DNA of 9,944 nt, taken from a virus (lineage: Duplodnaviria; Heunggongvirae; Uroviricota; Caudoviricetes). Shown here in pieces: positions 37 through 9,944 of this stretch. The stretch lies in IMG/VR virus record IMGVR_UViG_2740892431_000015; one strand, written 5' to 3'. A program made the position numbers and the translations under genes. Each line of letters opens with the position of its first letter. Within the stretch, counting starts at the first letter, position 1. Below the pieces are notes generated by a model that was not told where the DNA came from, ran no database searches, and worked only from the letters and a program-made list of their open reading frames with translations.

Positions 37-2142
37 ATGGCTAAAGCATGGAAAGATGTTATCGCCTCTCCACAGTATCAGGCGTTAGCACCAGAACAAA
101 AAGCGCAGGCTCAGGAGCAATACTTCAATGAAGTCGTGGCCCCGCAAGCCGGAGAAAGTGTAGCGCAGGCTAAGCAGGCTTTTTATGCTGCCTATCCACT
201 ACCATCAACGAATGAAATAGACCGATCCCAATCAGCAACTCAAAATATTCAACATACATCATCTGATAATTCTCTTGCGTCAGGGTATGCAAAGTTAGCT
301 ACTCAGCAAAGAGAGGGGCTTGAGCGTTCAGCAGAACAGGGAGCCAGTCTTGGGGCTGCGATGCGCGATGCTATAACAGGCGAAAGCCGAATGACTCCAG
401 AGATGGAGAGACTGCAAAATGTCGACCTTGCCCCAGAGTTAACCTCACTCAGCATGGGTGCTCTAAAAGCTCGATGGTCTCAACTTTTCGGCTCTGACGC
501 ATCTCAGGAAAAGATTCTTCAGAGCATGGGAGCGAAATTAAGGCAGGATGAGAAGGGTAACACTATCGTTTCCCTGCCATCCGGTGATTATGCTCTGAAC
601 AAGCCGGGTTTATCGCCGCAAGACGTGGCATCGTTTCTGGCTAATGCGCTGGCGTTTACACCAGCGGGCAGGGCTGGAACGGTGCTTGGTGCCATAGGAA
701 AATCAGCAGCTACAGATTTAGCACTACAGGGAGCCACCAGCCTTGCTGGTGGAGAAGATATTGATCCGTTACAAACGGTAATTTCTGCTGGCATTGGTGG
801 TATTGGTAAGGGGCTGGAAAATACAGCGAGTGCGGTTTCGAGGGCTGTTCGTGGTGATATGTCGCCTGAAGCAAAGGCTGCTGTCAACTTTGCATCGGAA
901 AGAAATCTGCCGTTAATGACCAGTGACATGCTGAAAGATAAAACCTTTATGCAGAGTCAGGCTCAGACATTAGGCGAAAGAGTTCCTTTTTTTGGAACCG
1001 GTAAGAATCGGCTGAATCAACAACAAGCACGAGAAAATTTAGTCAGAACATTTAGCGATGGTCTGGGTGGCATTTCTGATAAACAGCTTTATGAATCTGC
1101 GACTAAAGGGCAACAAAAATTCATTGAGGCAGCAGGAAAGCGATATAACCGCATAATTGACGCTATGGGGGATACCCCTGTCGATCTCTCAAACACGGTA
1201 AAAGCTATCGACAATCAGATTGCCGTGTTAAGCCGCCCGGGCAAATCTCAGGATAGAGCCGCGGTAAAAGTCTTGCAGCAATTTAAAGACGATATCACCA
1301 GCGGACCAAATGACCTGCGTCTGGCGAGGGAAAACAGAACCGATCTTCGAAAGCGATTTATGGCGTCATCTGACACTGTTGATAAAGATACGCTCCAGAA
1401 AGCCAGCGATATTATCTACAAGGCATATACGGCGGATATGAAAAAAGCCGTAGCCAAAAATCTTGGAGCAGACGAAGCCATTAATATGGCAAGGGTTGAT
1501 CGGTCATGGTCTAAATTCAATGACATGATGGGAAGAACGCGCGTTCAAAAGGCAATAGCCAGCGGTAAGGCCACGCCTGAGGATGTAACAAAACTCGTTT
1601 TTAGCCAAAGCCCATCAGAACGTTCTCAGCTTTACAGGCTTCTGGATGACAATGGTAGGCAAAACGCACGAGCAGCCATAGTTCAGAATGCTGTAGATAA
1701 GGCGACTGATCCGTCTGGAAATATCAGTGTTGAGAAGTTTATTAATGCGTTACACCGGAACAGGAAGCAATCAGCAACTTTCTTTAAAGGCGTACATGGA
1801 AAGGAACTGGACGGCGTTATTAAATACCTCAACGATACAAGACACGCGGCAAAAGCGAACGTTCAAAACTTAAATGGTCAGCAGCTTTATGGATTGTTAG
1901 TTGGTGGTGGCATCATAAACGCAGCAGTATTAGCGGGGATGCTAAAAACGGCTGCGTTTGTTGTTCCTGCTGCTGGTGCCGTAGGCGGAGCAGCGAAGGC
2001 ATACGAAAGCCCTGTTATACGAAATGCCTTGTTACGTCTGGCAAATACGCCAAAAGGTAGCACAGCATATGACAGAGCGATCAGTACGGTCACACAATCG
2101 CTCACCAGAGTCGCACAGGCATCACAAAAAGAAGCTCAATAA
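37..2142 (+). CDS. Large hypothetical protein (701 aa), Ala/Gln/Lys-rich and probably helical, with internal Gly-rich segment and C-terminal glycine-zipper-like hydrophobic hairpin; candidate membrane-active protein (bacteriocin-like toxin, or phage tape-measure/ejection protein)
   Basis: Long uninterrupted ORF in typical-GC DNA; ATG at 37 preceded by GGGTGA; in-frame TGA at 31-33 means the frame cannot extend upstream. Hydrophobic Gly/Ala-rich stretch LLVGGGIINAAVLAGMLKTAAFVVPAAGAVGGAAKAY near residues 623-662, followed by a ~40-aa polar tail. Antisense ORFs inside it are shadows. Confidence 0.8.
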   Translation: MAKAWKDVIASPQYQALAPEQKAQAQEQYFNEVVAPQAGESVAQAKQAFYAAYPLPSTNEIDRSQSATQNIQHTSSDNSLASGYAKLATQQREGLERSAEQGASLGAAMRDAITGESRMTPEMERLQNVDLAPELTSLSMGALKARWSQLFGSDASQEKILQSMGAKLRQDEKGNTIVSLPSGDYALNKPGLSPQDVASFLANALAFTPAGRAGTVLGAIGKSAATDLALQGATSLAGGEDIDPLQTVISAGIGGIGKGLENTASAVSRAVRGDMSPEAKAAVNFASERNLPLMTSDMLKDKTFMQSQAQTLGERVPFFGTGKNRLNQQQARENLVRTFSDGLGGISDKQLYESATKGQQKFIEAAGKRYNRIIDAMGDTPVDLSNTVKAIDNQIAVLSRPGKSQDRAAVKVLQQFKDDITSGPNDLRLARENRTDLRKRFMASSDTVDKDTLQKASDIIYKAYTADMKKAVAKNLGADEAINMARVDRSWSKFNDMMGRTRVQKAIASGKATPEDVTKLVFSQSPSERSQLYRLLDDNGRQNARAAIVQNAVDKATDPSGNISVEKFINALHRNRKQSATFFKGVHGKELDGVIKYLNDTRHAAKANVQNLNGQQLYGLLVGGGIINAAVLAGMLKTAAFVVPAAGAVGGAAKAYESPVIRNALLRLANTPKGSTAYDRAISTVTQSLTRVAQASQKEAQ

Positions 2143-2161
2143 CTGGTTAGCCATGGATGGC

Positions 2162-2776
2162 TTAGATATCTCTGCTGTCTCCATTAGGAAATAAAAGATA
2201 ATATGGATTTGCCTTTCTTGCTCTCCTTGCTTCACCCGGATACCTGTTAGTCAGTAGCTTGCATAATGAGCAGAGAACAACACTCAAGAAAATTCCGAAT
2301 GAGAAGATCAATATCTCACCAAAAATCAATGGCGATATTAAATTTTCAGGATTTAATGATAAGTCAATGTTAAAAACATATTGAGCAATACCAGTAAGTA
2401 TCAATAATATAATCCCTATGGAATACATTGCTGTTTCCCAAACATCAGACAGTCTATTTTTGAATTGTTCGCTGGAGTAGTAGTTTGTTATAAAGTCAGA
2501 AAAATCACTCTCATATGCATCATCTTTAGGTGATGTTAGAAATCCTCTGTCTCTCCATACCTTCTCCCAATTAGTCGATTCTTTTTTTAAGGAAAAATAA
2601 ATATGTATTCCCAAAAGGATAGCCAAAATTGGTGTTAGCTCTAAAAAATAGAATGTTATGGAATAAATAATACTGCCATGTTCAAACTCATCTGGGACTA
2701 TCATGTATGCACAAAAATAAATTGAAAAGTACACCATGCAGATAGTTAGCAATTCTTTAGTATCTTTTCTGCTCAC
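2162..2776 (-). CDS. Low-GC integral membrane protein, about four predicted TM helices (204 aa); candidate immunity or exclusion protein
   Basis: GTG start at 2776 with AGGGGG Shine-Dalgarno about 6 nt upstream on the minus strand; four hydrophobic stretches (LLTICMVYFSIYFCAYMIV, IIYSITFYFLELTPILAILLGIHIYF, AMYSIGIILLILTGIAQYVF, ISPLIFGEILIFSFGIFLSVVLCSLCKLL); strongly AT-rich compared with the flanking genes; convergent with the 701-aa ORF, stops 19 bp apart. Confidence 0.7.
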   Translation of the reverse strand: MSRKDTKELLTICMVYFSIYFCAYMIVPDEFEHGSIIYSITFYFLELTPILAILLGIHIYFSLKKESTNWEKVWRDRGFLTSPKDDAYESDFSDFITNYYSSEQFKNRLSDVWETAMYSIGIILLILTGIAQYVFNIDLSLNPENLISPLIFGEILIFSFGIFLSVVLCSLCKLLTNRYPGEARRARKANPYYLLFPNGDSRDI

Positions 2777-2885
2777 ACCAACCCCCTTTAGCGTTGTTTA
2801 GAATGGCAATCATCATATATCCAAGACATGGCATTTGGTACATAGCTTGGGTCGGGATTTCAAGTCCGCTCCCAGTTGATGGGGC

Positions 2886-3040
2886 CGTTACAGTACGCGC
2901 ATATCCGCTTTATGTGAAACAGGAAGATTTTTCTGATATCACTGCCACAGCAAAACACCAATTTCGTGACCAGTACGCGCGCGAGGGGTATCAGTTGCAA
3001 AATTTTTTGCAACTGCGTCCGACCAGTACGCACACGATGG
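2886..3040 (+). repeat. Three degenerate same-orientation copies of a CAGTACGCGCGCGA-type (CG)n-palindrome element
   Basis: cagtacgcgcatatcc at 2891-2906, gaccagtacgcgcgcgagggg at 2968-2988, gaccagtacgcacacgatgg at 3021-3040, in a ~520-bp stretch with no convincing gene. Confidence 0.6.
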
Positions 3041-3230
3041 CGGGGGATACCATAAAACTGTTCTCTACATGAGACAGAGTGGTGGTGATGTGTTGATTAT
3101 CGGCGTATATGCGCACAGGACGCGCTATGACGATGTTTTATGCGGGTACACCAATCACATGTATCTGGTGTGATAAATCGCGTTACATGACCTCTCATGT
3201 TGTGCTGGTGGTTATCACGACTTTCTGAAT

Positions 3231-3274
3231 CTGGCCTTTGCCTGATATTTTGCGACAAGTACGCGCGCGTAGCA
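3231..3274 (+). repeat. Copy of a ~45-bp repeat ending in GACAAGTACGCGCGCGTAGCA (contains perfect palindrome TACGCGCGCGTA)
   Basis: ctggcctttgcctgatattttgcgacaagtacgcgcgcgtagca; about 80 percent identical to the copy at 4608-4652; sits just beyond the 3' end of the minus-strand 73-aa gene. Confidence 0.65.
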
Positions 3275-3297
3275 TCGACAGCATACACATTGGATAT

Positions 3298-3519
3298 TCA
3301 TTTTGTGACCAATGCGATAAGTAGCGGGATAAGAATTGATAAAATCAACAGGCCGATGATCCACTTTTGATTTTCACTGGCCTTATCTCTATTTTCATCA
3401 ATCTTATCAATAATTCGACGCTCCAATCCGTGCATATCACCGCGAATGGCAATCATCTCATTGCGAACATCAGGGAAGTGGTTGGCTTGATGTTCAATGT
3501 GTGGCGTTCTGCCTTTCAT
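3298..3519 (-). CDS. Small tail-anchored membrane protein (73 aa): ~50-aa charged N-terminal region plus one C-terminal TM helix
   Basis: ATG at 3519 with GAGGA Shine-Dalgarno 6 nt upstream on the minus strand; C-terminal WIIGLLILSILIPLLIALV hydrophobic helix; 79 bp downstream of the RHH gene on the same strand, so probably co-transcribed. Confidence 0.55.
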   Translation of the reverse strand: MKGRTPHIEHQANHFPDVRNEMIAIRGDMHGLERRIIDKIDENRDKASENQKWIIGLLILSILIPLLIALVTK

Positions 3520-3598
3520 ATCTGATCCTCACCTATCGTCACTACCTGCTGGTGTATAAAGGTATTGGCCCAAGCAACTTTCCAATGGGCACTCATGT

Positions 3599-4054
3599 TT
3601 ATACGCTGACCTTACAATCAATCACTGCTTTTAGCTTTTCAGCATTGCTTCCCTGACGCTTCCACGCGCTGTAAATATCTTTATCCCACGCTTTACCAGC
3701 TTTTGTTTGATAGCCTGCTTCATTGATCCGTTCAGCTATCACACGCCCATTATCAAATCCCTGTTGGATGGTATCGGCAATGATCTTTATAACTGCCGTT
3801 TCGTTATATGGTTTTGGTGGGATGTTCGGCTTTCCGGCAATAAGCGACGCAGCGGCTTTTTCCATGCGCTCCACCAGCCCAAGCATTCGTGAATCAATAG
3901 ACTTTTCCGGCTGCCCCAGCTTCATGCGAATCGCATCAACAAGCCAGGAGGTTTTATCTCCTCCAGAAGCGAGAACAGACCGATTAAACTCATCCTGCAA
4001 TTCAGATGGGATGCGGAACGCGACCAGATTAGATTTGCTCATTGCAAAGACCAT
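3599..4054 (-). CDS. Ribbon-helix-helix (CopG/Arc/MetJ-like) DNA-binding protein with ~100-aa C-terminal extension (151 aa)
   Basis: N-terminus LVAFRIPSELQDEFNRSVLASGGDKTSWLVDAIRMKL fits the RHH pattern of beta-strand, helix, G-x-T/S turn, helix (my pattern recognition, not a search). First gene of a two-gene minus-strand unit; palindromic operator and iterons immediately upstream. Start may be the second ATG at 4042. Confidence 0.65.
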   Translation of the reverse strand: MVFAMSKSNLVAFRIPSELQDEFNRSVLASGGDKTSWLVDAIRMKLGQPEKSIDSRMLGLVERMEKAAASLIAGKPNIPPKPYNETAVIKIIADTIQQGFDNGRVIAERINEAGYQTKAGKAWDKDIYSAWKRQGSNAEKLKAVIDCKVSV

Positions 4055-4149: not shown

Positions 4150-4268
4150 CTGTGTTGTTGGTTCAGAGCTGGGCTGTGTTGGTTCAAAATGAGTTGATGT
4201 TGGTTCAATATTTCAGAAAAAACACAATAAAAACAACAATCTTTACAAATTGAACCAACTGAACCAAC
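4150..4268. promoter_or_regulatory. Iteron-like array: three direct TGTTGGTTCA repeats at exact 21-bp spacing plus two tandem inverted TGAACCAAC copies, between divergent genes
   Basis: TGTTGGTTCA at 4156-4165, 4177-4186, 4198-4207; TGAACCAAC at 4251-4259 and 4260-4268; TATAAT at 4281-4286 just before the ATG at 4300. Confidence 0.55.
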
Positions 4269-4299
4269 TATGCTTATCTATATAATCTGAGAGGCAGAA

Positions 4300-4581
4300 A
4301 TGATAAGGGACAGGAAAGCTGAAGAGCTGGAGTCAAAAGGGCTATACCGGAGAGCTGCCGCACGATGGATGGAAGTCATGCTGTTATGCACCGAGGACGA
4401 TGATCGGGAATGGATAAAGCGCCGCCGTGAAACGTGTCTGGAGAACGTGAAGCGCCCGCCCGTGAAGGTTGAGGAATTTGGCGACCTGCATAAAGCTGTT
4501 ACCGAAACGCAACACCGCATGGGGATAGCGCAACCGAACGGTAACGCCTTCCGGTTAAATGGCGGCAAGAGGCAAAGGTAG
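4300..4581 (+). CDS. PerC-family-like transcriptional activator (93 aa)
   Basis: GAGAGG Shine-Dalgarno at 4289-4294; N-terminus MIRDRKAEELESKGLYRRAAARW resembles the PerC/Pch small-activator signature as I remember it; size fits (~90 aa). Family call is from memory, not a search. Confidence 0.65.
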   Translation: MIRDRKAEELESKGLYRRAAARWMEVMLLCTEDDDREWIKRRRETCLENVKRPPVKVEEFGDLHKAVTETQHRMGIAQPNGNAFRLNGGKRQR

Positions 4582-4585
4582 ACCA

Positions 4586-4607
4586 CCAGAGGGAAATCAT
4601 CCTCTGG
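4586..4607 (+). terminator. Possible weak intrinsic terminator hairpin after the PerC-like gene
   Basis: ccagagg (4586-4592) pairs with cctctgg (4601-4607), 8-nt loop; downstream T-content is only moderate. Confidence 0.25.
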
Positions 4608-4652
4608 CTGGCGGTTTCTGGTATTTCGGGACAAGTACGCGCGCGCGTAGCA
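4608..4652 (+). repeat. Second copy of the ~45-bp repeat ending in GACAAGTACGCGCGCGCGTAGCA (contains palindrome TACGCGCGCGCGTA)
   Basis: ctggcggtttctggtatttcgggacaagtacgcgcgcgcgtagca; same orientation as the 3231-3274 copy; lies just 3' of the PerC-like gene. Confidence 0.65.
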
Positions 4653-4878
4653 CCCAATCGGTGAGGAAATAGCGGCGACCTGAATGGTCAAAATCACAAC
4701 GCAGCTATCCCCGTAAGCAGCGCTTAACGGAATAGCAGTAACCTGAATCCAGTGGGGAGGGGGTAGTCAAATCTCTACAGCCCTGACTATCCGGGACTGC
4801 CCGCCCCATCGTTTTTTTATACCCGCGAAAAATGAAATTTAATCCGGGCGTGTTTCATTCTTCCAGAGGGTATGACGT

Positions 4879-5064
4879 ATGACACCACGCGAAATAGCCT
4901 TATTGACCATCGCCAAACTTGAGCACGGAGGCCACCAGCTTACACAGGCAGATCAACGGGAGATAGAACGATCAGTTAATGCCGATATAGCCCGGCGCGA
5001 CAGGTTCCGCGAAATGATGCGAGCACCTGCCTACCAGTGGAAGAAGCCAGCGCCGCGCAGGTAG
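4879..5064 (+). CDS. Small hypothetical protein (61 aa)
   Basis: ATG at 4879 with AGAGGG Shine-Dalgarno 8 nt upstream; same strand and immediately upstream of the pRiA4b-ORF3-like gene; no recognisable family. Confidence 0.4.
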   Translation: MTPREIALLTIAKLEHGGHQLTQADQREIERSVNADIARRDRFREMMRAPAYQWKKPAPRR

Positions 5065-5184
5065 ATATGGGATTATTCCACATGTAACTTATGCGTATTA
5101 AGCAAATTTCCTTTATTCACCTTTACAGAATTGTGAGTACGTCAGTATCGTTATCCTTCCGATTCGCATTTATTCAGGATTTGC

Positions 5185-5727
5185 ATGTACCAGCTAAAGA
5201 TAACCATCCGAGACAGCAAACCACCTATATGGCGGCGTGTGCTGGTTCCAGAGCAAATCCCCTTTAGTAAACTTCATGCCGTGATCCAGTTAGCTTTTGG
5301 CTGGAATGACGAACACCTGTATATGTTCGAGAAAGGGCGTAAAGGTGATCCAGGTAGCGAGTATCGCGTATGGGGTGAGGATGAAAGCATGGGTAACGCG
5401 GCAATCACGCCACTATGGGCGGCGCTCCAGAATGAGGGTGACAAGCTGGTTTACACGTATGACTTTGGCGACTGGTGGGATTGCGTCATTGTGCTGGAGA
5501 AGCAAACACACGATACGAGTAATCAGCCCATTAGCTGCCTGCGTGGGAAAGGCACCACCCCGGCGGAAAACTCAGGCGGCTTGCATGGTTACAATGAATT
5601 GCTATTACAGGCCAGAGAGTCTGATAATCCTGAGCAGGCCGAGATCCACAATTTCCTGATGCTGGATATTGAACGCCGGGTTTACGACCTGAGCCGCATC
5701 AACGACAGATTGCAGGCTATTAACTGA
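5185..5727 (+). CDS. pRiA4b ORF-3-like family protein (180 aa), the family of the IS1096 'TnpR'-like protein; function unknown
   Basis: N-terminus YQLKITIRDSKPPIWRRVLVPEQIPFSKLHAVIQLAFGWNDEHLYMF matches the conserved IWRR...LH.VIQ..(F/M)GW..HLY.F signature I recall for this family. Confidence 0.8.
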   Translation: MYQLKITIRDSKPPIWRRVLVPEQIPFSKLHAVIQLAFGWNDEHLYMFEKGRKGDPGSEYRVWGEDESMGNAAITPLWAALQNEGDKLVYTYDFGDWWDCVIVLEKQTHDTSNQPISCLRGKGTTPAENSGGLHGYNELLLQARESDNPEQAEIHNFLMLDIERRVYDLSRINDRLQAIN

Positions 5728-6079
5728 CCCGCATGTATTCACCTGATATTGCGTTGTCAGCGCCGCCAGTATCGCGCATAACAGCGCACTGACCGGGTAA
5801 ACCGTAGCGCACGACCGTTGCGTTAGTATCACCGCCGCGCCGTATCTGGCGCGATTCATACACTGTCACCCGCTCAAGCAGTCCACCAGCAACCATGCTT
5901 TCCAGTGTGCGCCGGGTTGATTCGAGCTGGTGACGCTTATCGAACGACACCATGCCATGAAGCAGGTAGGCCACACCCGACACATCGAACGGCGGCGCAC
6001 CAATCTCACCAGTCACCCATTCGAGGTTATCCGGTTCAAAGTAGCTAAGTATCTCTTTTTTGCGGCTGGTCATTCTCAT
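5720..6079 (-). CDS. Hypothetical protein (119 aa), possibly a winged-helix DNA-binding protein
   Basis: ATG at 6079 with AAGGAA ~11 nt upstream on the minus strand; imperfect 32-bp palindrome upstream; 3' end overlaps the convergent 5185-5727 gene by 8 bp. GC-rich region with long ORFs in several frames, so coding status is uncertain. Confidence 0.5.
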   Translation of the reverse strand: MRMTSRKKEILSYFEPDNLEWVTGEIGAPPFDVSGVAYLLHGMVSFDKRHQLESTRRTLESMVAGGLLERVTVYESRQIRRGGDTNATVVRYGLPGQCAVMRDTGGADNAISGEYMRVS

Positions 6080-6092
6080 GGCTGGCTGATTC

Positions 6093-6124
6093 CTTATTGT
6101 GGGATAGCACTATCATACAATAAG
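6093..6124. promoter_or_regulatory. Compound imperfect palindrome (CTTATTGT ... GATAG-CA-CTATC ... ACAATAAG), candidate operator upstream of the 119-aa minus-strand gene
   Basis: Read directly: 8-bp outer arms at 6093-6100 and 6117-6124 with a nested GATAG/CTATC inner palindrome; 26 of 32 positions symmetric. Confidence 0.4.
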
Positions 6125-6901
6125 TGGGTTAAAGGGAGAGCGTTACCGCCTGATATGCTGTATGAATAACAACCAAATTTCAGGGGCGGAAAAAGATATG
6201 GGGGTACTTTTGGGGGTATCTATAAAAAATGAACAATAAAAAAGGCAACAAAAACAAAGCTTATCGCCTATGTGTATTGTTCCTATTATCGCACAATCAA
6301 GAAAATCAATAACTTAGCTTAACTTCTCTAAGAAATTGTATCTTCTGTTATCACTTACAAACGCCTATACGTTGTTATGGGCTTTGGTAGTGTAACACGT
6401 ATGGGCGAGTAGTTCCCAGGCTCAACCTCGTAACAAGTTCCTTTGAAGCTGGAAGACGTGCCACCGTCTCTAAACCTTCTACCAAAACTCTTAGCAAGAT
6501 GTTCCACACCTGGCGCGGTGTCCAATGATGCTACACGTCGTGAGACGTTGCAGAGGATAAACAGGCTAAATGATGGGAAGAGTTTTAAGTGCAATAGTGG
6601 ATCAAAGCCCACCTCTTCAAAACCTAACTTGATCGGGAAAGAATCAAGCTCTAGCACGGTTTCGTCCACCGGAGTACAACGGGTGCCTGATAAGAGAAGA
6701 ACTGCTAAGACTTCATAGCTTTTGTGAAAAAGCCCTTTTAGTGGATACGCCTACGGCGCTTATTTTTTGGGGTAGCCCATCAAAGGCGCTTTATGGCTCC
6801 TATTGTCTTGAAAATGTATCTTTACTTGTATTGTGTTTTATGCGTAGTCTCCCTGTGTAGTATGTAACTTGTTAATTTTCATATGAATACAGAGGCACAC
6901 G

Positions 6902-7060
6902 ATGAAAAACATTGCAGCTATCAAACGTAATAACCGCAAGATTCACGCTCGTAAGTTCCTGTCTACGCCAGAAGGAAAAGCCTGGCTAGAGCGTAAACAG
7001 AGAGAGAACGAAGAAAGAAAACTCCTTAATGAGTTGAAATGGCTTAGAGAGGATTTCTGA
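6902..7060 (+). CDS. Small basic protein (52 aa), below the ORF-track threshold: MKNIAAIKRNNRKIHARKFLSTPEGKAWLERKQRENEERKLLNELKWLREDF
   Basis: ATG at 6902 with AGAGG Shine-Dalgarno at 6891-6895 (6-nt spacer); TGA at 7058-7060; sits alone in AT-rich DNA that is otherwise noncoding. Confidence 0.45.
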   Translation: MKNIAAIKRNNRKIHARKFLSTPEGKAWLERKQRENEERKLLNELKWLREDF

Positions 7061-7224
7061 AAATCTCCAGAACGCAACAGGACGCATTCTAACGCTATTT
7101 TCATTGCTTGGTATAGGGATGTATAGGTGATGTGTGTTTAATGCGTCTGTGCGCTTGTTTTGTGCCTTATTTTGCATTTTCATAATGCAGAAGAGAACAC
7201 GGAAAACCTTAAAATTAATTATTG

Positions 7225-7262
7225 GGGTATTTAAGGGTATTTTCAGGTGATTTAAGGGTATT
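7225..7262 (+). repeat. GGGTATT(T/A) direct repeats, including two 13-bp copies ATTTAAGGGTATT spaced 20 bp apart
   Basis: gggtattt at 7225-7232 and 7235-7242, gggtatta at 7256-7263; related GGGGGTA pair at 6199-6220. Confidence 0.5.
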
Positions 7263-7330
7263 AAACTTGATTTAATTGATTAAAATATAAACAGATAGTT
7301 GTGTATCTTATTGATTTATAAGGTTATTTT

Positions 7331-7390
7331 TAAATAAAGGTAAATAAAAAATAAATAGCCATAAATAGCTATAAATACATCTAAATACCT
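7331..7390 (+). repeat. Six tandem 10-bp units of (A/T)TAAATA-type, 10-bp helical phasing (probable intrinsically curved DNA)
   Basis: taaataaagg, taaataaaaa, ataaatagcc, ataaatagct, ataaatacat, ctaaatacct occupying consecutive 10-bp blocks 7331-7390. Confidence 0.55.
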
Positions 7391-7872
7391 ATATCCCTTC
7401 CCTTATGGCTAGATTGCGAGAGGTGCTTAACGCGATTTTCAGCGCCCCCCGATCTGGAAAATCCAGAATCCCCAAATATCAGCAAGGAATTTTCTTGCGT
7501 AATCAACATCGTTTTTACCTATTAAATCATTACACAGAAAGCCTTTCTGTAATGTCTCTCACTAAACTTTCACTAAACACGAGAATGATCGGTTTTATGT
7601 CGGATCAGATGCTAGAAACAGCACCACGTCTCACAAGGACTGTAAGCGATGAAACCAGTGTTTATGCGGGTGCAGGTCAAAATATAGGCCAAAATCAATT
7701 TAACATAATAAACGTAATATGCACTAAGGAACACATAGAACGCCTTGAGTTGATGTATCAGGGGAAAAAAGTGATGGATTTTTTACGTAGGAGCACGAGA
7801 GGGCTTCTGTTGACTTTTGTATGCTATGAAACATAATTAAAGGTTTTTTTGTTTTTATTGTGTGATGTAGTG

Positions 7873-7900
7873 GATTACACAGGGGAATAGATTAAATGGT
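7873..7900 (+). repeat. Iteron copy GATTACACAGGGGAATAGATTAAATGG (ATTACACAGG family)
   Basis: Shares the ATTACACAGGG-AATA...GATTA-TGG pattern with the tandem copies at 8224-8287. Confidence 0.45.
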
Positions 7901-8223
7901 GTTCTGTTTATACAGGTTTATTTGTTAGATCAACAATTTGGCATTTCTAAACAGATGTTTGAACGTTGCCAAATGTCTTGACAACACAAGAAAAGGGCTT
8001 GCTATGCCACGCATTACACGAAATAAGGCTGTAAAAACAAAATAAATTTTAAAATTTGCACAAACGAGAAAACTCGTTAAGAAACAAGCAGAACAATTTT
8101 TAGCCAACAATTTCTGATGGTGCTCTGTAGGCCGCACTACACAAGGATTTGCGAAAGTGATGTAAAAGTGAAGAAAGTAAGAATTGCACTTTTAAGCTAC
8201 TTTTCATTGAATTTTTAGTATGG

Positions 8224-8287
8224 AATTACACAGGAATAAGTTAGGGATATTCTATGATTTACACAGGGAATATAGGGGATTATGGCA
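8224..8287 (+). repeat. Tandem pair of ~32-bp imperfect direct repeats (ATTACACAGG family iterons)
   Basis: aattacacaggaataagttagggatattctatg (8224-8256) and atttacacagggaatataggggattatggcac (8256-8287); further single cores at 8013-8020, 8136-8146, 8303-8311 and 9405-9415. Confidence 0.55.
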
Positions 8288-8459
8288 CACACATAGAAAG
8301 GCATTACACAGAGTGAGTGCTATGTGATGATTGGTAGTAACGGTAGGTCATAGTGAGCTAGGGGGTAGGTCACTGTGAACTACAATAAGACTATTAATAA
8401 AACTATATTAGATTATTAATTAGATCATAATAATAATATTCTTTATATCTATATATATG

Positions 8460-8880
8460 ATCTTTTGCCTTCCGGCGTTAGCTTCACTCTCTGGCAAGCA
8501 GCCTTACTCCGCTACCTTTCGGGCTTCGTGGCTGGCCCGTTCCGCTCACACCGAAAGCAAAGCGTTACTTTCTTCGTGTAACTTCGTTGGCGGTAACGCC
8601 CACGAAGAAATCTATTGCGCTGTGCGCAGTAAGAGTAATCACCTAACCAATCATACTGATTGCTTATGTGTTAACTCTCTCTAACTCTTAATTACCCTCC
8701 TACATTTAATAACTCTGTTATTCTCTGTAGTTGTGTAATTACTCGAAGAGAGAGCGGCTAAAGCTCAATTACACTCTGCTTTCCTCGTGTAATTTCACTA
8801 AGCCTCAATACAATTTCACTTCCTACATTCTGTAGTCGTGTAATTGTTTTCGGTGGAAAAGCCAGAGGCGACACCGAAAG
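8460..8880 (+). other. GC-enriched structured island inside AT-rich DNA; candidate structured ncRNA or single-strand initiation/origin hairpins
   Basis: Hairpin 8516-8557 (ctttcgg / ccgaaag); hairpin 8570-8609 (9-bp stem ttcttcgtg / cacgaagaa enclosing GGCG-GTAA-CGCC, a GNRA tetraloop); hairpin 8848-8879 (tttcggtg / caccgaaa); 10-mer ACACCGAAAG repeated at 8548-8557 and 8871-8880. The 75-aa ORF here has no ribosome-binding site. Confidence 0.3.
8721..8845 (+). repeat. Two direct repeats TTCT(CT)GTAGT(T/C)GTGTAATT carrying the iteron core in reverse orientation
   Basis: 8721-8740 and 8828-8845; further reverse-orientation cores CGTGTAA(C/T) at 8575-8582 and 8785-8793. Confidence 0.45.
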
Positions 8881-8888
8881 AGAATTCT

Positions 8889-8950
8889 GATCTTATTAAT
8901 CTTATCTATCTTAGTTAATCTTCTTACTTATCTTACTTACTTTATCTACT
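8889..8950 (+). repeat. Degenerate 9-bp tandem repeat (ATCTTAnnn) in a G-depleted pyrimidine-rich tract
   Basis: TCTTA at 8890, 8899, 8908, 8921, 8930 (mostly exact 9-bp spacing); only one G between 8889 and 8965 on the top strand. Confidence 0.5.
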
Positions 8951-9481
8951 TTATTATTAATAATAGCTTTATAAGCTCTCTGTGTAGCTCTCTGACGCAA
9001 GAAACAGCATTCAGGAAGGGAATCACCTTAGAAAAGGTGTTCTTTGCGTCATAATGTGTTTTATGAAGGATTCAGAGGTGTTTCATAACAGGAATGTATA
9101 GAGAATACTTTAGGTAATTAAAAATAAGGGGTCTAAATGCTTCTCTAACAGCATTAAGCAGGGTAGGGAATGGAAACGCATTGCCTACATATAATAAACT
9201 CACTACAGGGCTTTACAGGGCGTTTTATAAAGTGACTCTCTGTTTTATATCTACAATCACCTTTTCATATACCTAACAAATACAAAATAAGCCCCTTAAA
9301 TAAGCCTCTGGCGAGCTAAACAGACATTACATAAGAGAATGTATTGCTTTTATCAAAACTTCGTTAGAACGCGTTTTAGAGCGTTTTAGCGGATAATGAA
9401 GAATAGCACTACACAGAAGAGCACGAATTGCTAAGACAAATTATAACATGCTGAAAAAGATCGATTTTTTCGAAAAGGGTA

Positions 9482-9510
9482 TTGACAAATGTTTCTTTAT
9501 ATGTAATAAT
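9482..9510 (+). promoter_or_regulatory. Sigma70-type promoter candidate with extended -10 (TTGACA, 17-bp spacer, TGtAATAAT)
   Basis: Consensus -35 TTGACA at 9482-9487; TG at 9503-9504 and AATAAT at 9505-9510; would give a ~105-nt leader to the ATG at 9624. Confidence 0.45.
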
Positions 9511-9623
9511 AGGTATTAGAGGGACAGAAAAACATTCTTCTCTAAATAATCAAAATCAATGCACTTTGAAGCCGTCAGGCTTGCAAGGTGTTTTATTTCT
9601 TTTAACTGAATAAGGAGTTTTTT

Positions 9624-9812
9624 ATGAAATGGTTTACACCGGAGCACGTCGTAAAGGCATTTAAAAAAGGTGAGCTTACACGCCACCAAATAGTAATGAA
9701 TCGTAATATGGCAAGGAGTCGAGGTTATCCAGAGCGAGCAGCTTGCTTCAATGAAGCACTCAAGATTATTGATGAACTAAGAAAAAATGAAAAAGAATCT
9801 GAAACAGAGTAA
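9624..9812 (+). CDS. Small hypothetical protein (62 aa)
   Basis: Strong AAGGAG Shine-Dalgarno at 9612-9617 with 6-nt spacer; candidate promoter upstream; followed 19 bp later by a second gene with its own ribosome-binding site. Confidence 0.6.
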   Translation: MKWFTPEHVVKAFKKGELTRHQIVMNRNMARSRGYPERAACFNEALKIIDELRKNEKESETE

Positions 9813-9831
9813 AGAAGAGAAGGAGAAAACT

Positions 9832-9939
9832 ATGAGCGAAGCTACAGAAAAGAAAAGACAACCACGCACTTGCTTTCATATTCCTGATGAAGTATTTCAG
9901 GTGTTGTTTAAAGAAGCGGTGATGCTGCCAACTTACTGA
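9832..9939 (+). pseudogene. Gene truncated by IS1 insertion: native N-terminal ~28 codons (MSEATEKKRQPRTCFHIPDEVFQVLFKEA) run into the IS1 end and stop at TGA 9937-9939
   Basis: ATG at 9832 with AGGAG at 9821-9825; the reading frame continues into the IS1 terminal repeat (from 9918), so the native C-terminus is missing. Confidence 0.5.
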
Positions 9940-9944
9940 TTTAG
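9918..9944 (+). mobile_element. IS1 terminal inverted repeat (IRL-type end), 27-bp fragment; element body lies outside the window to the right
   Basis: GGTGATGCTGCCAACTTACTGATTTAG matches the IS1 left terminus as I remember it and is the exact inverse of bases 1-27. Confidence 0.85.

Follow-up and report, generated by a model that had tools for sequence, protein, structure and literature searches.

Positions 4177–6297 of the window, by which we mean the whole stretch of 9,944 nucleotides analysed, are the attR-proximal end of a phage-inducible chromosomal island (PICI) of the EcCIMP1 type. It is a satellite of P22-like phages and is integrated at thrW. The four genes at this end, for a PerC-family regulator, the small protein p61, a pRiA4b ORF-3 family protein and the protein p119, do not form a single unit; they belong to modules that assort independently and make the region a mosaic. 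Taking the evidence together, we consider it likely that the satellite end consists of independent modules throughout, including a p119 that would regulate itself through a conserved palindrome and a pRiA4b gene that is a passenger. The element has already been published as a PICI and is not novel, and the region is mostly ordinary.

The attR-proximal end of an EcCIMP1-type PICI

Over 2.1 kb, the stretch 4177–6297 showed 98.3% nucleotide identity to the distal end of EcCIMP1, the PICI of E. coli MP1 that the P22-like phage Kapi1 mobilises (Pick, Stadel and Raivio, ISME J 2025; PMC11773190), and this homology stops at position 6297. Excision and transfer of EcCIMP1 by Kapi1 were shown experimentally (PMC11773190). 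The near-identity to an element proven to excise and transfer with its helper, together with att repeats and site-specific integration at a tRNA gene, identifies the element as a Gram-negative PICI. Its right boundary is the att core (6281–6294), a partial copy of the tRNA-Thr 3' end (TCCTATTATCG-CAC) that agrees with the thrW 3' end in the related locus L001; the MP1 junction was also analysed. By direct-repeat search, a pair of integrase arm-type repeats (TGGGGGTA twice, 6197–6220) was found in the P' arm of attR. A near-identical arm-type block (ATGGGGGTACTTATGGGGGTAT) adjoins int at attL in L001, and MP1 has similar repeats. Like EcCIMP1, the element occupies the thrW site between proA and yagU with the same att core, and the WP accessions of PerC, p61 and pRiA4b are identical between the window and MP1.

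On the other hand, the window differs from EcCIMP1 to the left of 4177, where it encodes a 701-aa gp16-family protein, a SieA-like protein, p73 and RHH151, and MP1 has a 906-aa transglycosylase and a short HTH protein as the counterpart. The gp16-SieA-RHH synteny had prompted the idea that the whole region is a P22-like prophage remnant, which was dropped in favour of a PICI once siblings encoding a P4-type primase, AlpA and Icd had come to light along with the EcCIMP1 paper. Integrase, AlpA and primase, whose genes would fall beyond the window, are all three carried by the sibling elements. In the genome of strain AF3, which is the best match (99.8% identical), int is present and the alpA-primase region is replaced by IS1; MP1 keeps this region. 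The copy in the window, truncated by IS1 as in AF3, may be inert because the alpA-primase region is missing. A scan of the whole window against Rfam gave no match at E of 1 or below.

PerC, p61 and the assortment of the modules

The open reading frames lie at 4300–4581 (PerC, plus strand, 93 aa), 4879–5064 (p61, plus strand, 61 aa), 5185–5727 (pRiA4b, plus strand, 180 aa) and 5720–6079 (p119, minus strand, 119 aa), exactly as the first-pass annotation had drawn them. All four are under purifying selection. The first of them matched PerC (PF06069) with E=3.7e-30 and 104.5 bits against a cutoff of 22.6 over residues 1–85 of 93, as expected of a family member, and phrog_994 with E=1e-37; its dN/dS was 0.11–0.35. 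The protein (WP_000617443.1, the same accession as in E. coli MP1) is identical to EcCIMP1_025, for which the published cloning primers match 4300–4319 and 4564–4581, both ends of the reading frame. EcCIMP1_025 silenced LEE1-lux in C. rodentium, whereas perC of EPEC activated it (PMC11773190). Thus, the family named by the first-pass annotation for this "PerC-like activator" stands, while the label of activator is unsupported because the reading frame is that of a LEE1 silencer. The ANR model NF033650 gave a borderline 31.1 bits (E=1.6e-7), just under the curated NCBIfam cutoff of 32; the LEE1-repressor phenotype fits ANR-like action, with ANR membership itself not established. PerC alleles carried by Gram-negative PICIs were already known.

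Between PerC and p61, a terminator-like GC-rich hairpin (4754–4807, plus strand) is followed by a T7 run (4812–4818). The hairpin was seen in both MFE and centroid folds, and a simple terminator scan did not flag 4754–4818. Judged from the sequence, transcription may terminate here, and the PerC/ANR-like regulator would then probably be cut off from the downstream genes and act on other transcription factors or promoters, not on its neighbours. The next gene, p61, is a CDS annotated by PGAP for a small basic protein and matched phrog_7271 (E=2e-6). Its homologs occur in most related loci, usually convergent with p119, and show a dN/dS of 0.11–0.35 and no in-frame stops down to 42% identity.

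The assortment of these genes was compared among related loci. About 18 of 27 species-level loci have p119 without pRiA4b, and p61 and p119 are directly convergent in L012, L021, L023 and L027. L002 and L009 carry an inserted PanA toxin-antitoxin, and L016 an inserted IS256-type transposase. L041 has the trio p61-pRiA4b-p119 but no PerC, and L004, L039 and L040 have PerC but not the trio. In L003 and L037 additional genes lie between PerC and p61, and in Pantoea and Klebsiella elements PerC is kilobases off, beside SSB and primase. Some loci have further cargo beyond p119, namely a GmrSD pair (L035) and a dinD-like gene (L003). Across these loci, the recurrent backbone of the satellite lineage consists of p61, p119 and the RHH gene, PerC is semi-core, and only the pRiA4b gene behaves as cargo. 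Therefore, of the earlier view that the region is the regulatory cargo of a mobile element, the mobile element was confirmed and the cargo narrows to a single gene.

This pattern bears on the alternative that PerC, p61 and pRiA4b are a co-transcribed regulatory operon with a PerC-type activator, and that p119 is its antisense or overlapping counter-regulator. The three genes are adjacent on the same strand not only in the window but also in MP1 and in 269 E. coli genomes that match over the full length, the scan tool flagged no canonical terminator between them, and a convergent overlap without a terminator permits transcriptional interference. However, the hairpin with its T7 run follows PerC, other genes can stand between PerC and p61, PerC and the trio assort independently, and EcCIMP1_025 repressed its only tested target (PMC11773190). 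The pRiA4b gene also has a promoter-like site of its own (see below). We thus regard such an operon as improbable, and the three genes are no longer to be taken as the functional unit proposed at first pass; the mosaic of separate modules is preferred.

p119 and the palindrome upstream of its gene

p119 is encoded by the final backbone gene before attR. It has 542 homologs, a dN/dS of 0.09–0.23 and no in-frame stops in homologs down to 61% identity, so that both it and p61, for which coding signatures had been called for, are real genes. Searches of p119 against Pfam, NCBIfam and PHROG placed it in no family at the sequence level, and PDB sequence searches with the single sequence and with a profile found nothing meaningful. 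The structure prediction suggested at first pass was run. AF2 on 24 close homologs reached a pLDDT of only 44, which was unusable, and the model became usable after divergent representatives were added (pLDDT 76.5, with the last 20 residues disordered). This model has a three- or four-helix bundle followed by a beta-hairpin wing, which is the arrangement of a winged helix-turn-helix fold, and the Foldseek E-values were weak (0.013 or higher). By its model, p119 is a predicted DNA-binding protein of winged-helix fold, from a family in Enterobacterales that has no name.

Upstream of p119 lies a conserved palindrome of 32 bp (6093–6124; consensus in p119 sense CTTAtTGTATGATA-nnnn-TATCCcACAaTAAG), which overlaps a TATGAT −10-like hexamer, abuts the SD of p119 and is 13 nt from its start codon; attR adjoins it. 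The arms of 15 nt are 87% complementary around a 2-nt centre, and both half-sites read CTTATTGTRKGATA with 0 mismatches; at two or fewer mismatches, 3 half-sites were found in the whole window against 0.35 expected by chance. The palindrome is kept in 24 of 24 related loci with a mean pairwise identity of 87%, against 32% for the adjoining outer 30 nt. Moreover, 18 of its 32 positions are invariant across loci in which p119 is 61–71% identical and dS is above 1.3. Homology ends exactly at the outer edge, with an unrelated flank beyond. The first-pass annotation had described a compound palindrome, and the 32-bp element is indeed there; its inner GATAG-CA-CTATC is not conserved and the central 4 nt vary freely. 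A second full site was not found elsewhere in the elements checked, the sole exception being an isolated half-site with one mismatch in L003.

The two half-sites keep an asymmetry (TATGAT versus ATCCCA), which fits a −10 element in one of them. TATGAT is preceded by a variable flank with no conserved −35, and scanning for promoters gave no sigma-70 site there; thus, transcription of p119 may need an activator or start elsewhere. Pairing of the palindrome was kept in 80.8% of cells compared with 81.0% in shuffles, and there were no compensatory changes. A hairpin or terminator was ruled out by this lack of covariation and by the conserved mismatches. An element terminus was also rejected, since the att core lies about 160 nt farther out and some siblings have cargo beyond p119. 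With no pairing covariation and an occurrence only at p119, the palindrome reads as an operator, and probably an autoregulatory one: a p119 dimer would bind it over the −10-like hexamer and repress its own transcription. The K. pneumoniae 'plasmid' CP033626 is a circular form of such an element (int <- attP -> p119), where 13 nt again separate the palindrome from the p119 ATG. In the excised circle the operator would therefore border attP, and p119 and int would be read away from it in opposite directions.

Alternatively, the palindrome might not be an operator of p119. It could belong to attP and be bound by RDF, Int or IHF, it could be the site through which AlpA or a helper-phage factor turns p119 on at induction, or it could form a hairpin in RNA or DNA. 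The Int arm repeats are about 70 nt and the att core about 160 nt away from it, the palindrome stands at the edge of the int-p119 intergenic region in the circle, and the lack of a conserved −35 suggests activator dependence. On the other hand, the cargo in L035 and L003 parts p119 from the element end and the spacing of 13 nt to the p119 ATG is still kept, so that the palindrome tracks p119 and not att. Moreover, Int arm sites vary between integrase types but the palindrome does not, and the hairpin version is at odds with the absent covariation and the conserved mismatches. We regard these alternatives as doubtful and prefer the operator of p119. A milder variant, in which p119 is a new satellite regulator that couples attP/int activity to cargo expression via the operator at the attP edge, seems quite unlikely to us.

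The pRiA4b passenger and comparison with known systems

The assignment of the 180-aa protein to the pRiA4b ORF-3 family (PF07929, MM3350-like) was borne out by Pfam (E=1.1e-42, 146.2 bits against a cutoff of 26.6), and the protein matched PDB 2i1s with E=3.2e-21 over residues 1–167. Its dN/dS is 0.04–0.09 in good-quality pairs; a value of 0.53 for L037 was discounted because it comes from a metagenome contig with fragmented genes. A sigma-70-like promoter candidate (TTTACA-18-TATCGT, 5122–5151, plus strand) precedes the gene, with 9 of 12 matches in a consensus scan whose count of candidates was not above shuffle expectation. The upstream spacer accompanies the gene in L003, L037 and L041, and the Serratia copy (L038) has a similar TTTACA...TATTGT upstream. 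Elsewhere, PF07929 genes are found in transposons (ISAzba1 group), in 2,697 plasmid records, or alone among housekeeping genes. The neighbourhood analysis proposed at first pass revealed a slot of variable content in the sibling elements, while distant homologs stand alone with no recurrent partner. The gene is probably a facultative, moron-like passenger that brings a promoter of its own and has entered the gap between p61 and p119, two convergent backbone genes. Among the siblings this slot is either empty or occupied by PanA-type toxin-antitoxin modules as well, with Phd/Doc modules at the analogous element end in a sibling.

The pRiA4b gene and p119 overlap tail to tail by 8 bp (5720–5727, TTAACTGA), as had been noted before, and the overlap contains both stop codons. 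It is kept in every pRiA4b-bearing locus of the lineage, including L016 (pRiA4b/p119 74%/71% identity) and L037 (pRiA4b 61–66% identical), and this retention may point to a functional link between the two in this sub-lineage. They might even be a functional pair of an effector and a winged-helix regulator or antidote, like toxin-antitoxin or abortive-infection systems, that could underlie the superinfection immunity given by EcCIMP1. The location among toxin-antitoxin cargo agrees with this, as does the fact that the authors of EcCIMP1 found no recognisable defence system. However, p119 with the same operator and position lacks pRiA4b in most genera, and pRiA4b (77% identity) occurs without p119, beside Phd/Doc, in the Serratia locus. 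A type II toxin-antitoxin would be a co-oriented operon with obligate co-occurrence, and the pair fails on both counts because its genes point towards each other and loci with only one of them exist. Searches of the pRiA4b gene with PADLOC and PHROG gave no match, PADLOC-DB 2.0 on 8 proteins gave nothing at E of 0.1 or below, and distant PF07929 genes have no conserved partner. We therefore think a functional pair unlikely and retain the passenger.

A literature search for a function of PF07929, pRiA4b or MM3350 turned up just Agrobacterium vector papers and annotation mentions. We infer that the role of the pRiA4b protein is most likely accessory, directed to host or phage via protein binding. 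That the PF07929 passenger, alone or with p119, is the determinant of EcCIMP1 superinfection immunity against the P22-like helper has, in our view, only a slight chance of being right. If true, this would be the first function, phage interference, for a family on thousands of plasmids, transposons and satellites.

As found, the region is of little consequence in itself, since both the element and its PerC gene had been published before, and Gram-negative PICIs are well known to carry PerC alleles. The EcCIMP1 paper is silent on pRiA4b, p61, p119 and the palindrome (PMC11773190), and what our study adds is a map of the attR-proximal end of a satellite lineage (p61, cargo slot, p119, operator, arm sites and core). 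In addition, p119 stands for a family without a name, predicted to be winged-helix, whose putative operator is strongly conserved across many Enterobacterales genera, and PF07929, a widespread family with a solved structure, acts here as swappable satellite cargo near toxin-antitoxin modules. E. coli MP1, phage Kapi1 and an existing deletion toolkit provide a tractable system for testing PF07929 function, and the same system could reveal the source of EcCIMP1 superinfection immunity.

Finally, each module can be set beside a known system. The PerC protein resembles PerC/Pch of EPEC and EHEC by its full-length PF06069 match and ANR (Aar) by its near-threshold match; in contrast to EPEC PerC and EHEC PchABC, which activate LEE1 (ler), the identical PICI protein repressed LEE1. 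The pRiA4b protein shares the motifs YTYDFGD-W and P-E(N/D)SGG-GY with MM3350 of Methanosarcina mazei (PDB 2i1s), the founding structure of PF07929, but its gene is here the passenger of a phage satellite. Compared with autoregulated winged-helix repressors of the ArsR, MarR and Fur types, p119 has no ligand or metal domain, and its 20 C-terminal residues are predicted to be disordered. The region as a whole differs from the accessory and defence hotspots of satellites (P4-like, Rousset et al. 2022, PMC9122126; PICI accessory regions) in its satellite lineage and flanking genes, and pRiA4b is not recognised as a defence gene. It is similar to them in that a set position close to its end, with conserved genes on either side, takes variable cargo, which is here nothing, pRiA4b, a PanA toxin-antitoxin with pRiA4b, or an IS.

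Boundary and identity of the satellite end

The region at 4300-6124 forms the accessory and regulatory end of EcCIMP1, a phage satellite already published as a phage-inducible chromosomal island (PICI) of commensal E. coli MP1. EcCIMP1 is excised only upon induction of the P22-like prophage Kapi1 and is transduced by Kapi1 (PMC11773190). Over window 4177-6297 the sequence matches the distal end of EcCIMP1 at 98.3% identity, the PerC, p61 and pRiA4b proteins (defined below) share their WP accessions between MP1 and AF3, and the published 'EcCIMP1_025' primers align to 4300-4319 and 4564-4581. Therefore, the element and its PerC gene were already known. What is new is the anatomy of the attR end of the satellite, an unnamed family of predicted winged-helix proteins (p119) with a strongly conserved putative operator at the attP edge, and the cargo status of the Pfam family PF07929.

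Of 5,426 complete E. coli genomes searched by megablast, 681 contain the 2.2-kb region, 269 of them over its full length. In the AF3 genome (99.8% identical), it sits in an island at tRNA-Thr (thrW), with proA on one side and yagU on the other, in the order int, IS1, P22-gp16-family ejection protein, SieA-like protein, two small genes, PerC, p61, pRiA4b and p119. Sibling elements occupy either thrW or the yicC/dinD site and carry an integrase, AlpA-type HTH, AntA/B antirepressor, Icd-like protein, P4-type TOPRIM/DUF927 primase, SSB and P22-like ejection proteins, with no capsid, tail or lysis genes. Just left of the window in AF3 (L001 15176-15873), IS1A immediately precedes the gp16-family gene, and EcCIMP1's alpA-to-primase block is absent; the satellite copy in the window is probably defective.

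Homology to EcCIMP1 ends at 6297, 6281-6294 (TCCTATTATCG-CAC) is a copy of the tRNA-Thr 3' end, and 6197-6220 (ATGGGGGTACTTTTGGGGGTAT) is nearly identical to the block adjoining int at attL, which places the P' arm and core of attR at 6125-6297 and assigns the DNA further out to another island next to it. Thus, p119 is the last gene of the satellite and is transcribed inward. The adjacent island (6298-9944) extends in AF3 into genes for HTH, capsid and baseplate proteins and a second integrase; a stretch of about 2.5 kb within it (~7100-9600) has no PGAP-annotated ORF and no Rfam hit.

A circular 22.9-kb 'plasmid' of K. pneumoniae (L046, NZ_CP033626.1), whose record holds a ~4.5-kb assembly duplication, is a circular and apparently excised relative. 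It carries int, AlpA-like HTH, Ant, Icd, primase, SSB, PerC, a tape-measure-like protein, pRiA4b and p119; int and p119 diverge from a ~440-bp attP region, and the palindrome described below lies at its edge, 13 nt from the p119 ATG. Together with CP031370.2 and NZ_CP146545.1, this record belongs to a set of Klebsiella/Raoultella circular 'plasmids' of 17-23 kb typed as non-mobilizable, of which it is the one inspected. Such small circles look like excised circular PICIs of the EcCIMP1 lineage, which PLSDB may have wrongly filed as plasmids.

Coding content and modular assortment

The first-pass annotation had described a PerC-like activator (93 aa, 4300-4581, +), a 61-aa ORF (p61, 4879-5064, +), a pRiA4b ORF-3-like gene (180 aa, 5185-5727, +) and a convergent 119-aa gene (p119, 5720-6079, -). 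The ORF list and raw sequence agree with it in every coordinate, including the 8 bp shared by the last two genes (TTAACTGA), which contain both stop codons. Both family assignments are borne out well over the Pfam gathering scores (PF06069, E=3.7e-30; PRiA4_ORF3 PF07929, E=1.1e-42), and the 180-aa protein matches 2i1s, the sole solved structure of its family (E=3.2e-21). The two small ORFs carry a coding signature: dN/dS is 0.09-0.23 for p119 and 0.11-0.35 for p61, homologs as distant as 61% and 42% identity, respectively, contain no in-frame stop, and the indels among 542 p119 homologs across Enterobacterales are multiples of three codons. Purifying selection on the pRiA4b gene is strong (dN/dS 0.04-0.09). 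The earlier observation is confirmed, and its interpretation is partly supported.

To compare gene content, a genome collection was scanned with a p119 profile, giving 27 species-level loci, and the window proteins were then run against these by tblastn, with the annotated E. coli loci considered alongside. It is evident that the genes are modules rather than one unit. p119 occurs with pRiA4b in 8 of the 27 loci and without it in about 18, where it is either directly convergent with p61 (L012, L021, L023, L027) or in tandem with the gene for the 151-aa ribbon-helix-helix protein, RHH151 (L017, L018, L022). The p61-pRiA4b-p119 trio is also found without PerC, and PerC with nothing, or another gene, downstream. 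The slot between p61 and p119 holds a Panacea-domain (PanA) toxin-antitoxin pair ahead of pRiA4b in L002 (10301-11193) and L009, and an IS256-type transposase in L016. An AlpA-bearing Serratia element has a 77%-identical pRiA4b at its end, adjoining Phd/Doc (L038 2300-2892), without p119. Downstream of PerC is a hairpin (4754-4807) with a T7 run, and a TTTACA-18-TATCGT site upstream of pRiA4b moves together with the gene. Therefore, pRiA4b occupies an accessory slot as a moron-like passenger, while p61, p119 and RHH151 are recurring backbone genes in the loci compared. Defence or toxin-antitoxin cargo is recognisable at accessory slots of sibling elements, also as a GmrSD-type pair beyond p119 in Pantoea (L035 6106-9337) and an Abi-family gene adjoining RHH151 (L040 5536-6498); a dinD-like gene lies beyond p119 in L003.

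PF07929 is a recurrent passenger of mobile DNA, carried by ISAzba1-group transposons and, as distant relatives (<60% identity), by 2,697 of 72,556 PLSDB plasmid records (869 Klebsiella, 504 Escherichia), most of them typed conjugative (1,816). Only 4 phage records have it, and its distant homologs on chromosomes are solitary genes, with no neighbour that recurs among those examined. It is thus a very common plasmid passenger in Enterobacteriaceae, for which we found no functional report in the literature. Kapi1 lysogens gain superinfection immunity from EcCIMP1 without a recognisable defence system (PMC11773190). Because it is placed among toxin-antitoxin cargo, pRiA4b is one candidate source of this immunity, a speculation that we regard as improbable.

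p119 and its putative operator

p119 has no sequence match in Pfam, NCBIfam, PHROG, PADLOC or PDB, and its family is small (91 clusters at 50% identity among 1.84 billion proteins). Among phage records, only Klebsiella phage vB_KpnP_ZX1 has a relative (MW722080.1 10167-10433), a protein annotated as hypothetical that is 37% identical over 97 residues (E=1e-9). In essence, p119 is a gene of satellites and not of phages.

The palindrome at 6093-6124 in the p119 leader has 15-nt arms (13/15 complementary) around a 2-nt centre, with a perfect match to CTTATTGTRKGATA in both half-sites; the half-site motif was found three times at ≤2 mismatches, against 0.35 expected by chance. It lies upstream of p119 in all 24 loci inspected (p119-sense consensus CTTAtTGTATGATA-nnnn-TATCCcACAaTAAG), with 18 of 32 positions invariant and a mean pairwise identity of 87% versus 32% for the adjacent 30 nt, and is kept even where p119 is only 61-71% identical (dS > 1.3). 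The 32-bp palindrome reported earlier therefore stands, but its 'compound' inner part is not conserved, because the central four bases vary freely. A hairpin would call for compensatory change, which was not seen at paired columns (80.8% paired cells versus 81.0% in shuffles; covariation score 0.051 versus 0.056), and the central pair of mismatches (AT opposite CC) is conserved, so that the promoter-proximal half retains a -10-like hexamer, TATGAT. These features speak against a hairpin and are the signature of a protein-recognised operator. Half-sites are restricted to the region upstream of p119 in the elements checked, except for one isolated one-mismatch half-site in L003. The simplest reading of these alignments is that a p119 dimer would bind the palindrome as an autoregulatory operator. 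No -35 element is conserved in the loci compared, because the flank is an integrase-specific att arm that varies with integrase type.

In Pantoea, Erwinia and Buttiauxella elements, an RHH151 homolog follows p119 on the same strand after ~60-80 nt (L018 / L035 10001-10889; L022; L017), likely as an operon. In the E. coli window, the RHH151 gene lies beside PerC, having moved 1.7 kb away. These two DNA-binding proteins, p119 by prediction, may work jointly.

PerC and the helper-like block

PerC alleles on Gram-negative PICIs were noted as early as 2018. EcCIMP1_025 silenced LEE1-lux in Citrobacter rodentium and EPEC perC activated it, and an ANR-type function was proposed by the authors (PMC11773190). 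The near-threshold score of our PerC protein with the ANR model (31.1 bits, cutoff 32) agrees with this proposal. In Pantoea and Klebsiella elements, PerC adjoins SSB and primase, kilobases off.

Between PerC and the divergent RHH151 gene, 4156-4268 contains five copies of GTTGGTTCA, three direct with 21-bp spacing (4157, 4178, 4199) and two inverted (4251-4259, 4260-4268). Because the primase gene of EcCIMP1 in MP1 is directly followed by an 82%-identical copy of this block (L036 19296-19388), the block may be the satellite's replication origin or a shared regulator site.

Further left, in window 37-4054, the genes run from a 701-aa ejection protein of the P22 gp16 family through a SieA-like membrane protein (phrog_7745, weak match) and small genes to RHH151. 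This order parallels that of P22-like phages in their gene 16 - sieA - mnt/arc (immI) region, and the satellite seems to have captured the ejection and immunity block of its helper.
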